In this document: positions 588 through 6,783 of the stretch, piece by piece
Position numbering within the stretch: position 1 is the first letter of the stretch
Layout: the number at the start of each line of letters is the position of its first letter
DNA from: a virus
Lineage: Duplodnaviria; Heunggongvirae; Uroviricota; Caudoviricetes
IMG/VR virus record: IMGVR_UViG_2713897055_000013
Length of the DNA: 6,783 bases
Reading direction: 5' to 3' (one strand)
Program-made: the position numbers and the translations under genes
The notes under the pieces: generated by a model
Told to the model about the DNA's origin: nothing
What the model saw: the letters and a program-made list of their open reading frames with translations, nothing else
The model's database searches: none

Positions 588-624
588 GCGCCTCCGGTAA
601 CAGCAATCGGGGGCGCTTTTTTTT
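588..624 (+). terminator. Intrinsic terminator-like hairpin followed by T8 (weaker in the minus orientation)
   Basis: GCGCCTCCG (588-596) pairs with CGGGGGCGC (608-616) with one G-U, loop about 11 nt, then T8 at 617-624; a second GCGCC plus T7 follows at 625-638. An A4 run upstream gives a weaker minus-strand reading. Confidence 0.5.
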
Positions 625-1389: not shown

Positions 1390-1576
1390 TTTTACACCTC
1401 ACTTTTTAAAGCGTCTCGCTTCGTCTCACTTGATATTTTTTGATGCTTTATGTGTGTGTTTCATAAGGATTTTTTTTACTCCTCACTTTTGAGCATGTAT
1501 ACAGGTGAGAAAGTGAGTAATCGTGTTAATATTTTGTAAAAACCTCACCATTACTCACTTTTTCTACTCACTTTTT
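1385..1576. repeat. Iteron-like array of CTCAC(T)n repeats flanking an AT-rich core; putative island replication origin
   Basis: CTCACTTTT-type copies at 1385-1393, 1398-1407, 1425-1431, 1482-1490, 1544-1548, 1554-1563 and 1567-1576, plus two inverted GTGAG copies at 1505-1509 and 1513-1517. AT-rich, T-run-rich spacer at about 1430-1480. The array starts at the stop of the 469-aa ATPase gene. Confidence 0.55.
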
Positions 1577-2984: not shown

Positions 2985-3280
2985 TTTTTACCCCTGAATA
3001 CGTTAAGCATCTTTTTTATTTCCTGAATATTGGCGCGTGCTTTCTCCCTGCTGGTTGGTTTACTGCGGGGCGCTGCCTGTACCAGAGAAAAATCACGATC
3101 GAACTGATAAACAGGCATAACGCAATCATATTCGTAGCCTTCACGGCGGTAAGTGATGCGCCGTTCCTCCACGCCTTTAATCGTTACCGTGCCGCCGTAC
3201 TGGTCGCGGTAAATATCACCGCGCGTAAATTTAGGGTGAGTGTTGCCACTGGCAGTTAAGCCAGAATATTTAAGTTTCAT
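2981..3280 (-). CDS. Hypothetical protein, 99 aa, translationally coupled to the ATPase gene
   Basis: Stop TGA overlaps the ATPase ATG (ATGA at 2981-2984); GGAG about 9-10 nt upstream of ATG 3278-3280. No family recognised. Confidence 0.6.
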   Translation of the reverse strand: MKLKYSGLTASGNTHPKFTRGDIYRDQYGGTVTIKGVEERRITYRREGYEYDCVMPVYQFDRDFSLVQAAPRSKPTSREKARANIQEIKKMLNVFRGKK

Positions 3281-3516: not shown

Positions 3517-3736
3517 AAATTTTCTCCCTTATTCTTTTAATGTCCTCATTAAGGATGTCTGTAACTTTTATCAGCGAGTTTTTGGCAATTATTTTTATTG
3601 TTTTAAGTTTTCTTTTGTCGTGCTCCGACTGTGATTTTCTCTCCATGCTCTCCACCATGTGGGTAACATCAACGAGCGCACGTATCAGTATTTGCATTGC
3701 TTCTTCTGCTGCGTCTGGTGTGGTTTTATTGCACAT
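3506..3736 (-). CDS. Hypothetical small protein, 76 aa, in the AT-rich cassette
   Basis: Strong SD GGAGGGG (plus 3743-3749) 6 nt upstream of ATG 3734-3736. Charged, probably helical product MCNKTTPDAAEEAMQILIRALVDVTHMVESMERKSQ... Confidence 0.55.
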   Translation of the reverse strand: MCNKTTPDAAEEAMQILIRALVDVTHMVESMERKSQSEHDKRKLKTIKIIAKNSLIKVTDILNEDIKRIREKICDA

Positions 3737-3960
3737 GGTGTACCCCTCCGCATTTTTTTTTCGTTAGAAATAAGCGTTCTTCTTTCCTGTTCATCGCTCA
3801 GGAATACGCAGACCTCACCGCTAAGGCGTTTAAGTAAGCCGATGATTGCCCCTGATTCGCTGTCGGTCATCATGCCAGGGTAATCCTCTGCCAGTGCGCA
3901 AATAACTTCGATTTGGTGGGCGCGTTCTGCTGCCTGTTGTAGTGTGATTTCCTGGCTCAT
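3685..3960 (-). CDS. Hypothetical protein, 91 aa (MSQEITLQQAAERAHQIEV...); the track's 110-aa version starting at 4017 is less likely
   Basis: ATG 3958-3960 overlaps the stop of the upstream 64-aa ORF (ATGA) and is preceded by a G-rich SD. Its last 22 codons run through an A9 tract and overlap the next gene's SD and start. Confidence 0.5.
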   Translation of the reverse strand: MSQEITLQQAAERAHQIEVICALAEDYPGMMTDSESGAIIGLLKRLSGEVCVFLSDEQERRTLISNEKKMRRGTPCAIKPHQTQQKKQCKY

Positions 3961-4511: not shown

Positions 4512-4715
4512 ATGACCAACAAAGAATCAACCAATACACCATCGCAAAAAACGAACAGAGAGCACGAAAATATGGCGCTCGAGCATGAATCAGAAAGATT
4601 CGCACCATGCGCTTTTGTCCTTGATGAGTTTCTAAAAAAATATTCACGTTCCGAACGGATGAAAATGGCAGCACAATACGGCCCCAACAAGCAAGATAAT
4701 TGCCCACCAGCCTGA
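4512..4715 (+). CDS. Hypothetical small ORF, 67 aa, downstream of the RHH gene (weak call)
   Basis: Same strand as the RHH gene and followed by a plus-strand terminator, but no convincing SD and a hydrophilic, low-complexity N-terminus. Confidence 0.3.
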   Translation: MTNKESTNTPSQKTNREHENMALEHESERFAPCAFVLDEFLKKYSRSERMKMAAQYGPNKQDNCPPA

Positions 4716-4785
4716 TCGCGGTTATCATGCCCGGGCTTATGATTGTTGACACATACGGCGCAGCGGGTTAATTGTTCAGAAAGGT

Positions 4786-4811
4786 GGCTCCATTTCGGGG
4801 CCGCTTTTTTT
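4786..4811 (+). terminator. Intrinsic terminator closing the plus-strand RHH module
   Basis: GGCTCC (4786-4791), loop ATTTC, GGGGCC (4797-4802) with one G-U pair, then GC and T7 (4805-4811). Confidence 0.5.
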
Positions 4812-4836
4812 ATGTTCATCATTTGCCCTATATATG

Positions 4837-5045
4837 TTAAGCGGTCGTTCCGCGCGCTTCTTGTTCGCGTTCTTTCATCCATGCGATTACGTCTTCCTCA
4901 TACCATCCGCGACGGCGCAAACCGACACGAAAACCCTGCGGGAATTCTCCGGCGTTGATCATGCTTTGCAGCGTGCTGTCTGCCTTAATGTGGATAAGTT
5001 TTTTTTACTTCCTGGCGAAAGATGACTTTTTTTGATTGCTTCCAT
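4837..5045 (-). pseudogene. AlpA/excisionase-family-like small regulator interrupted by a frameshift at an A8 run (pseudogene or frameshift-dependent gene)
   Basis: ATG 5043-5045 with GAGGT SD 8 nt upstream opens a frame (MEAIKKSHLSPGSKKN...) that stops at 4959-4961. The -1 frame continues from the A8 run (plus T8 4999-5006) as ...LIHIKADSTLQSMINAGEFPQGFRVGLRRRGWYEEDVIAWMKEREQEARGTTA to a stop at 4837-4839. That C-terminal segment resembles the AlpA/Xis recognition-helix and wing region. Confidence 0.45.
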
Positions 5046-5175
5046 CGTGATTTACCTCATTAATCCGGTGTATTCCGGTGAGAAATACGGTAAATCATCG
5101 GATGCAGGGAAAAACAGTACTCACCGTTTTTAAACGGTATACACAGTTTTTTATATTGATGATTTGAAAGGGATT

Positions 5176-5202
5176 TATAAAAAAAGCGGCATTTCTGCCG
5201 CT
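5176..5202 (-). terminator. Intrinsic terminator downstream of the integrase / small ORF unit
   Basis: Perfect 7-bp stem AGCGGCA (5185-5191) / TGCCGCT (5196-5202), loop TTTC; on the minus strand it is followed by T7 (plus A-run 5179-5185). Confidence 0.55.
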
Positions 5203-5212
5203 TTCAGGATTG

Positions 5213-5464
5213 TTACCGCCATTTTTTTGGCCTGCCTCCGGTCTTCATGGATGCCGGACGTACAACCTTATCAATACTTACAGCCAGATTTCTGGAAGCC
5301 CCACGGGATACCAGGAAATCTACTACCTGTTTTTTTGATGGGGCCGTCGTTCTGTCCTCCGGATCGTAGGTTGACCAAAATTCATGCTGAACCATCAGGG
5401 CCAGTTGCAGCCCGTCGCAATTGCATCTGAAATTTGTTTGCATCTTAACAGTTTCATTTTTCAA
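5213..5464 (-). CDS. Hypothetical small ORF between integrase and terminator (weak; TTG start in the track, in-frame ATG at 5441-5443)
   Basis: ORF ends just before the minus-strand terminator, but neither start has a convincing SD and no family is recognised. Confidence 0.3.
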   Translation of the reverse strand: MKNETVKMQTNFRCNCDGLQLALMVQHEFWSTYDPEDRTTAPSKKQVVDFLVSRGASRNLAVSIDKVVRPASMKTGGRPKKWR

Positions 5465-5541: not shown

Positions 5542-6783
5542 CTAAACGGCTCGGATACCCCTTTTACCACTGGCGAGGGTTACGCCCGTCGCCGCAGCCT
5601 CGACAAATTCGCCCCACCAGCGCATAAGCACGATGCGTTTTTCTATGTAGTTGCTCCGGTTGTATGCCCGTCTGACTTCGTTGGTGTCGACGTGGGCAAG
5701 TGCGGCCTCTATTACGTCCGGCTCAAAGCCTTCTTCGTTCGCTGCTGTGCTGAATATGGCGCGTAATCCATGAGACACCAGCACGCCAGCGAATCCCATG
5801 CGTCGTAATGCTGCGTTAGCGGTCTGGCTGTTCATCGGCTGCTGTGGGTCTTTCAGACTCGGGAAAACATAATCGCGGTGGTGGCTGATTGGTTTCATAG
5901 CCTCCAGCACTGCCATAGCCTGGTCACAAAGCGGGATAACGTGGTCGCGGCGCATCTTCATGCGTCCGGCGGGTATGGTCCAGCGTTGCGCTTCCATGTC
6001 GATTTCTTCCCAGCGTGCCGACGATGCTTCAACGGGACGGGTTACGGTCAGTAACTGCCATTCAATCAGTAATCTGGTCTGCCGTTCTGTTGCCGATACT
6101 GATAAAGCCTGCATAAGCTCCGGCAGCTGTTCGGGGCGGATTGTTGGCATATGTTTTTTTACAGGGGAGGGGAACGCCTTACGCACATTCATAGCCGGAT
6201 TGGCATCAATCATCCCACTATTGGCGGCGTAATCCATTACCTCATTTATACGCTGTAAAACTCGCTTGAGCGTTTCCAGGTTGCCACGTTCCTTGATGGG
6301 GGTAAGCACCTCAACGAACCTGCGAGCGGTCAGGGTGTCTATTGGCGTGTTGCCGATGAACGGGAATACATATTTTTCCAGCGATCGCCAGATGTCTTTA
6401 ATCGTATTGGGGGCCAGATTCTGGCTGATTTTCACCTGGTACCATGCTGTTGCCACATTTTCGAACGTGTTCCCTTGTCTTCGGGCCTCTGTCTCTCTTT
6501 TTTGCCTCTCGTGGTCCTGTGGGTCAGTTCCGGCACGAATTAACGCCCTGTACTCGCTACGGCGTTTTCTGGCATCAGCCAGGGAAACATCATCAAGCGA
6601 TCCAAAACTCAGCAATATTCTTTTTTTGTCCGATGGTCGGTAGTAGGAAAATCTCCAGAGTTTTGATCCGGACGGTTTGATCAGGAGAAAAAGCCCTCCG
6701 CCGTCCTGTAGGGTGTATTCCTTTTCTGCTGGTCTGGCTGCTTTGATCTGTACTGTGGTTAATGGGGGTGTTTTTCTCGCCAT
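5542..6783 (-). CDS. int: Tyrosine recombinase, P4-type integrase (N-terminal arm-binding domain plus C-terminal catalytic domain), 413 aa
   Basis: N-terminus MARKTPPLTTVQIKAARPAEKEYTLQDGGGLFLLIKPSGSKLWRFSYYRP matches the characteristic start of P4-family integrases. C-terminal HGLRAIFST (H-x-x-R) and a terminal RAYNRSNY block fit the catalytic region. ATG is 6781-6783, so upstream signals and the att site are outside the window. Confidence 0.9.
   Translation of the reverse strand: MARKTPPLTTVQIKAARPAEKEYTLQDGGGLFLLIKPSGSKLWRFSYYRPSDKKRILLSFGSLDDVSLADARKRRSEYRALIRAGTDPQDHERQKRETEARRQGNTFENVATAWYQVKISQNLAPNTIKDIWRSLEKYVFPFIGNTPIDTLTARRFVEVLTPIKERGNLETLKRVLQRINEVMDYAANSGMIDANPAMNVRKAFPSPVKKHMPTIRPEQLPELMQALSVSATERQTRLLIEWQLLTVTRPVEASSARWEEIDMEAQRWTIPAGRMKMRRDHVIPLCDQAMAVLEAMKPISHHRDYVFPSLKDPQQPMNSQTANAALRRMGFAGVLVSHGLRAIFSTAANEEGFEPDVIEAALAHVDTNEVRRAYNRSNYIEKRIVLMRWWGEFVEAAATGVTLASGKRGIRAV

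Follow-up and report, generated by a model that had tools for sequence, protein, structure and literature searches.

In E. coli PICIs, for which four allelic variants of AlpA have been described, the AlpA protein of EcCICFT073 turns on the operon to which its gene belongs, and both induction and transfer require it. Deletion of alpA abolishes PICI transfer (Table 1 in PMC6092414), and PICI induction depends critically on AlpA dosage (Fillol-Salom et al. 2018, PMC6092414). The gene analyzed here lies in a 6,783-nt stretch of DNA, the whole of which was examined and is referred to as the window. Like the alpA gene of EcCICFT073-type PICIs, it is a 68-aa helix-turn-helix gene that has the same orientation as the tyrosine integrase gene, with one small ORF between the two. 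It also opens, as PICI alpA does, a leftward-to-rightward operon that includes RepA-type helicase/primase and packaging genes, and the satellite is inserted beside a tRNA gene. It differs from PICI AlpA in its divergent sequence, which scores 17.8 bits against Phage_AlpA (cut-off of 21), and in that its ORF is interrupted in this record. The best match by both profile and fold is 8C3T (GIsul2 excisionase/AlpA-family), which shares the MerR-like winged helix; unlike the gene studied here, 8C3T is described as an excisionase and not as a PICI activator, and the match has 23 % identity and weak E values.

The interruption itself invites comparison with two further systems. Programmed −1 sites, such as A_AAA_AAG of dnaX and those of the IS1/IS3 transposases, resemble this locus in that the heptamer A_AAA_AAC lies in the frame of the ATG at 5045 and the downstream ORF is in the −1 frame. 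In contrast to such sites, the locus lacks a conserved two-frame layout, a stimulatory hairpin or pseudoknot and an upstream Shine-Dalgarno sequence at the correct spacing, and its product would not be the conserved protein. The homopolymer errors of flow-based platforms (Ion Torrent, 454) provide the other parallel, as they affect runs of at least six bases, are commoner in longer runs, go in one direction per assembly, give rise to seeming frameshifts in genes that are otherwise conserved and occur in intergenic runs as well. Our case departs from documented examples of such errors in that the platform of the source record (JNNK) is deduced from its accession and that the clean flank has little power on the contig-wide rate.

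The original prediction, made from the window sequence, described an AlpA-like regulator whose halves lie in two frames joined at an A8 run and offered two readings, a slippage mutation that disables induction or expression gated by frameshifting. We show below that the gene is normally intact in relatives and differs in the window by two inserted A residues, which are probably sequencing miscalls.

An AlpA-type regulator gene in a satellite context

The integrase gene (5542-6783) and the alpA-like gene (4837-5045) adjoin each other on the minus strand, in the same orientation and with one small ORF between them. The gene set of the window consists of the integrase, the small ORF, alpA, an Icd-like gene, DUF4222, a RepA-type AAA_25 helicase and PerC. 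The relatives additionally carry a ClpP-protease/major-capsid fusion or Phage_cap_E, together with Nu1-type terminase small-subunit genes, and both in the relatives and in the source contig the integrase is flanked by tRNA-Pro and yejM. Judged by its gene content, the context is that of a putative capsid-encoding PICI-type satellite, which in E. coli is inserted beside tRNA-Pro and yejM.

To assign the gene to a family, we used the repaired 68-aa protein, from which one surplus base had been removed at each of two A-runs. In Pfam, it matched Phage_AlpA (PF05930) with an E value of 0.003 (17.8 bits; cut-off, 21) and HTH_17 with an E value of 0.006 (17.3 bits; cut-off, 27), while the unrepaired fragments of the window scored 14.6 to 16.7 bits against the AlpA profile. 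An NCBIfam scan of the repaired protein gave no match. The below-threshold score marks the protein as a divergent relative and not as a nonmember, since its homologues are still named AlpA family regulator by PGAP. The top PDB match of the family profile was 8c3t_A (AlpA-family), collinear over residues 1 to 61 (E value of 0.22). The AlphaFold2 model of an intact homologue (P0001), obtained with a moderate pLDDT of 68.8, contains a strand, helices at residues 10 to 16 and 22 to 31, a wing and a helix at residues 49 to 65. When this model was submitted to Foldseek, the best hit was again 8c3t (TM scores of 0.69 and 0.81, rmsd of 2.2 Å over 57 residues, E value of 0.16), followed by MerR-family DNA-binding domains. 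The modeled product is therefore predicted to be a single-domain protein in the range of approximately 60 to 75 aa with a MerR-like winged-helix fold.

The profile match, the fold match to 8c3t and the position beside a PICI-type integrase all support the view that the gene encodes a small winged-helix regulator of the AlpA type, an AlpA-like identity having been put forward tentatively in the original prediction. Its description of AlpA as the inducing activator in E. coli PICIs likewise agrees with the published work (PMC6092414), and by analogy with EcCICFT073 AlpA the gene studied here may play the same inducing role.

Reading frames of alpA and its intact relatives

The elements of the alpA-like locus, with the evidence for each, are as follows.

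4837 to 5045, minus strand: alpA-like regulator gene, 209 nt here versus 207 nt (68 aa) in all relatives, with two single-A insertions (ORFs, three-frame translation and alignment to intact coding sequences, WP_000387403.1 and others)
5027 to 5033, minus strand: first A-run, A7 here versus A6 (Lys-Lys codons AAA AAA) in relatives, a +1 change that shifts the frame after codon 6 (A6 in 13 of 13 covering references)
4999 to 5006 (plus-strand T8), minus strand: second A-run, A8 here versus A7 (GTA AAA AAA CTT) in relatives, a +1 change (alignment, reference comparison and pattern scans)
4959 to 5045, minus strand: 28-codon ORF, MEAIKKSHLSPGSKKNLSTLRQTARCKA and stop, native in its first six codons only (ORF list, translation and alignment)
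4837 to 4962, minus strand: 41-codon ORF, MINAGEFPQGF..., which holds the native C-terminal part and is gene KFV31455.1 in the source record
5055 to 5058, minus strand: Shine-Dalgarno-like GAGG, 9 nt upstream of the ATG at 5045 (read from the sequence)

The ATG at 5045-5043 on the minus strand opens the 28-codon ORF, which ends at a TGA at 4961-4959 and is preceded by the GAGG at 5058-5055, in agreement with the predicted good Shine-Dalgarno sequence and stop after 28 codons. Three-frame translation also bore out the AlpA-like C-terminal half, as the segment KKLIHIKADSTLQSMINAGEFPQGFRVGLRRRGWYEEDVIAWMKEREQEARGTTA occupies the −1 frame between the A8 run (T8 at 4999-5006) and the stop at 4837. 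What the prediction had missed was the change at the A7 run at 5027-5033. Alignment to intact homologues revealed that the gene is present not as two halves in two frames but as three pieces in three frames, joined at the two A-runs: MEAIKK (codons 1 to 6) lies in the frame of the ATG at 5045, VIFRQEVKK (codons 7 to 15) in a second frame and LIHIK... in the −1 frame. The missed first shift also accounts for the apparent shortfall of about eight residues relative to canonical AlpA/Xis proteins, because the bases from 5026 to 5007 had been read in the wrong frame, whereas the intact 68-aa protein is collinear with 8c3t over residues 1 to 61.

The same displacement bears on the heptamer A_AAA_AAC, which is found at 5006-4998 and conforms to X_XXY_YYZ in the frame of the ATG at 5045, a frame already displaced by the first insertion. 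A single −1 slip at the A8 run, or one extra A, does fuse the two frames, as had been proposed, here into a 69-aa ORF, but it does not restore the protein, since it yields the seven nonnative residues SHLSPGS in place of the VIFRQEV found in every relative. We therefore rejected either event as the native solution, given that codons 7 to 15 of the intact homologue use the third frame.

The occurrence of the gene in other genomes was examined by megablast of positions 4700 to 5250 against 5,426 complete E. coli genomes. The region was present in 287 of them, chromosomal in all, and the gene is recorded in them without interruption, as a helix-turn-helix or AlpA family regulator. The relatives possess one uninterrupted ORF of 68 aa (MEAIKKVIFRQEVKKLIHIKADSTLQSMINAGEFPQGF...). 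In the four that were retrieved, the coding sequence is 207 nt long; three of the four read MEAIKKVIFRQEVKKLIHIKADSTLQSMINAGEFPQGFRVGLRRRGWYE..., while the more distant EcN copy reads MEAIRKIIFRQEVKKIIHIK.... DNA alignment with the three closest relatives showed that within this gene the window differs from them by exactly two inserted A residues. In the EcN lineage, a G breaks the first run and the second is an in-frame A8.

A 101-nt query spanning both A-runs was then compared with the complete E. coli genomes. All 77 close copies span 99 nt, versus 101 nt in the window, and form a single ORF; neither insertion occurred in any of these 77 copies, none of which was at least 99 % identical to the query. 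Pattern scans that permitted 0 to 3 extra bases at each A-run matched seven viral and four metagenome contigs, all 11 of which carried the minimal 54-nt A6+A7 form, and gave no match in the species-representative genomes and no match whatever in the phage collection. These run-tolerant scans sought the A7+A8 allele elsewhere and retrieved the A6+A7 form alone in the viral and metagenome contigs. Moreover, the repaired protein is identical to a protein (P0034) present on at least 1000 contigs, its sister alleles are found on hundreds more, and among thousands of assemblies no other shared either insertion.

These comparisons bear directly on the proposal that AlpA expression is gated by recoding, that is, by −1 frameshifting on A_AAA_AAC, by transcriptional slippage or by a phase-variable switch of run length that controls induction. 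The proposal can appeal to the formal X_XXY_YYZ heptamer in the frame of the ATG at 5045, to the few public assemblies in which the second run departs from its usual length (A6 in three records, A8 here) and to the sensitivity of PICI induction to AlpA dosage (PMC6092414). Nevertheless, the locus is a single ORF in all high-quality relatives, so that neither a two-frame nor a three-frame layout is conserved, and two corrections, each removing one base, are needed to obtain the native protein. The seven nonnative residues produced by a single −1 slip would fall in the N-terminal strand and helix region. The 74 nt after the run fold with −15.9 kcal/mol (z = −0.29 versus shuffles), and neither a stimulatory structure in these 74 nt downstream of the A8 run nor an Rfam match at the region was found. 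Appreciable transcriptional slippage usually needs runs of at least nine bases, and A7 and A8 are shorter. Frameshift-gated expression, for which the original prediction had itself named uninterrupted homologues as counterevidence, is hence not supported, given the uninterrupted homologues in 77 of 77 complete-genome copies, 11 of 11 viral and metagenome contigs and the at least 1000 contigs carrying P0034. We regard recoding as extremely improbable.

Homopolymer lengths in the window, its source contig and other assemblies

To place the two alpA insertions in context, we compared all homopolymers of the window with those of three close, mutually consistent relatives and then with a wider reference set, with the same result. 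The 6.8-kb window contains five private homopolymer indels, each of them a +1 change in an A-run on the gene strand (A6 to A7 at 5033, A7 to A8 at 5006, A8 to A9 at 3761, A7 to A8 at 1477 and A7 to A8 at 624). They affect one of five A6 runs, three of ten A7 runs and the only A8 run, and in comparison with the relatives no −1 change and no affected run of five bases or other shorter run was seen in the window. The original prediction had counted two frame-switching A-runs in the island, which understates the five; the second of its two is probably the run at 3753-3761. The three runs outside alpA are listed below.

3753 to 3761, minus strand: A9 run (A8 in relatives), which replaces the last 8 codons (CGGVHHVQ and stop) of a 77-aa hypothetical protein (WP_000076670.1 homologue) by 22 unrelated codons (reference comparison and translation)
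1470 to 1477, minus strand: A8 run (A7 in relatives), located in the intergenic spacer that separates the RepA-type helicase gene from the next ORF (A7 in five of five covering references)
617 to 624, minus strand: A8 run (A7 in relatives), intergenic and downstream of the PerC-like gene, where it makes up the hairpin loop enclosed by GGCGC and GCGCC (A7 in five of five covering references)

The 22-codon extension caused by the shift at 3753-3761 enters the next gene (MCNKTT..., start at 3736). Two of the five sites (1477 and 624) are intergenic, and the +1 pattern is therefore independent of the coding context, while two of the insertions lie 27 nt apart inside one 68-codon gene.

The window derives from a 2014 draft contig of 94,492 bp (JNNK01000021.1, assembly GCA_000749525.1) and is located at one of its ends; the helicase protein of the window was found on this public contig only. 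The contig end falls approximately 200 nt into the ClpP-protease/major-capsid fusion gene, within the capsid module of the satellite. The assembly probably broke there owing to several copies of related satellites or prophages in the genome, and up to 7 related places per genome were counted. The drafts with the neighboring prefixes JNNI, JNNJ and JNNL are of STEC O91:H21 strains and were produced with Ion PGM and MIRA at 23-36x (PMC4192381), in a paper that does not mention JNNK itself. The literature search retrieved no searchable paper citing JNNK and no further paper from the same group; from the consecutive accession prefixes, we infer that JNNK belongs to the same submission and was sequenced on Ion PGM as well. 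Homopolymer miscalls, which rise with run length, are the main error of this platform.

Taken together, these data suggest an ordinary, normally intact 68-codon gene of the AlpA type just downstream of the satellite integrase, whose two Lys-Lys A-runs would each have gained a surplus base in the record (A7 for A6 and A8 for A7), so that the ORF appears in three frames. The most likely cause would be homopolymer over-calling in a low-coverage flow-based assembly, presumably from Ion PGM, with no ribosomal or transcriptional slippage at work, and the strain itself probably has a working alpA. We consider it quite likely that such over-calling explains the split gene, and we infer that the insertions are miscalls.

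The main rival reading is that the insertions are real replication-slippage mutations, which would make alpA a pseudogene and leave a satellite that can no longer be induced or transferred, either in a decaying island or in a mismatch-repair mutator lineage. Runs of A6 to A8 are natural hot spots of slippage, the window carries several private substitutions, and as PICIs that have lost alpA are no longer transferred (PMC6092414, Table 1), the host would tolerate an allele of this kind. Yet the five events are without exception +1, with two of them 27 nt apart in a single 68-codon gene, and two events hit intergenic runs that are invariant across all covering relatives. Neither alpA insertion recurs among the thousands of other assemblies.

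The window contains about six isolated private substitutions and two small clusters, which shows that the lineage has some real private divergence. About half of the isolated ones are transversions, as opposed to the transition bias of a mismatch-repair mutator, although the events are few; with transitions about as frequent as transversions, these substitutions are uninformative but do not resemble a mutator signature. At 3059-3076 and 3695-3716, short clusters in which the window differs from its relatives by substitutions and small indels lie at the edges of mosaic segments, and from 3691 to 3300 the window matches none of its closest relatives. Clusters at such edges would be typical of recombination mosaicism in the accessory region of a satellite.

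A further point in favor of real mutations is that every private indel lies within the island, the 8.2-kb chromosomal flank on the same contig being clean. No private indel was found there in the 6.25 to 8.2 kb that were compared, the sole A8 run is unchanged, and the flank has run-length polymorphisms common to several genomes. However, it contains just one run of at least seven bases versus thirteen in the island, and for this reason the clean flank speaks neither for nor against a uniform error rate.

Whether assembly-specific run errors of this kind occur elsewhere could be judged from comparable drafts. The second run is A6, not A7, in AIGF01 (DEC8A), in AFDU01 (STEC_94C) and in the Logan assembly of SRR066813, and five contigs carry a gene call for the 41-aa ORF downstream. 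An indel census detected eight private −1 run deletions in AFDU01, three of them in the conserved chromosomal flank, four in AIGF01 and four in 2.5 kb of the Logan assembly of SRR066813. Run lengths thus change in only one direction within each assembly, +1 in JNNK and −1 in the others, which is predicted by a base-calling bias and not by biological slippage. Overall, run-length variation at alpA was seen in none of 77 complete genomes, and off-length alleles were confined to drafts rich in same-direction homopolymer indels. One-direction, assembly-specific errors being demonstrated in such drafts, real slippage mutations in alpA are in our opinion unlikely; of the original suggestion of a slippage mutation that disables induction, the change in homopolymer length stands, and a mutational origin is less likely than a sequencing artefact in view of five +1 A-run indels, two of them intergenic, in a draft whose neighboring accessions are from Ion PGM.

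The same census tells against recoding, since all off-length alleles are found in assemblies that contain numerous homopolymer errors of one direction. It is also relevant to the idea that the A6 and A7 Lys-Lys runs near the 5′ end of alpA are hypermutable tracts whose ±1 slippage lets subpopulations turn the master activator of the satellite off and on, with the A8, A6 and A4/A5 alleles as real phase variants. If this idea were true, inducibility of the satellite would be a phase-variable trait; we hold it to be very improbable.

An in-frame variant of the protein, MEAIKSHLSPGSKKLIHIK (P0010), with the SHLSPGS middle segment, at first sight backs the fused protein of the original prediction. 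It was discarded, as rplY, yejM, radD and int are all split in its assembly. In L037 (GCA_033660045.1, JAWVHQ010000026.1), rplY, yejM, radD and the integrase gene are split by frameshifts, and the annotation of alpA gives an intact 67-aa 'AlpA family' protein whose middle segment is read in the wrong frame. This record illustrates that compensating miscalls can yield plausible-looking protein variants in databases.

With homopolymer over-calling as the preferred explanation, the split gene carries little biological weight. If the insertions were real, the satellite of one strain would be noninducible, since PICIs are not transferred once alpA has been deleted (PMC6092414). In practical terms, a gene that seems to be frameshifted at an A/T run in an older Ion Torrent, 454 or uncorrected long-read draft should be compared with its close relatives, and with the other homopolymers of the contig, before recoding is proposed. 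Here, this check turned a candidate frameshift-gated regulator into an ordinary AlpA gene of an intact family.

Sequence elements upstream of alpA

Just upstream of the ribosome-binding site of alpA, positions 5061-5080 form a 10-bp tandem repeat (minus strand, CACCGGAATA CACCGGATTA), whose copy number varies by relative; three copies are present in L002, L005 and L035 and two in the window. This repeat could be a candidate operator for AlpA or for a helper-phage inducer. Further upstream, positions 5110-5151 hold an imperfect 20-nt inverted repeat centered on ACCGTTTAAAAACGGT, which was flagged as terminator-like by a consensus scan, and a 12-bp deletion in one relative (L006, RM9387) takes out half of it. 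Finally, the sequence GAAAGCGGCAGAAATGCCGCTTTTTTT at 5179-5204 on the minus strand, which follows the small ORF at 5213-5464, has the look of an intrinsic terminator and as such would set the int-side unit apart from the promoter region of alpA.
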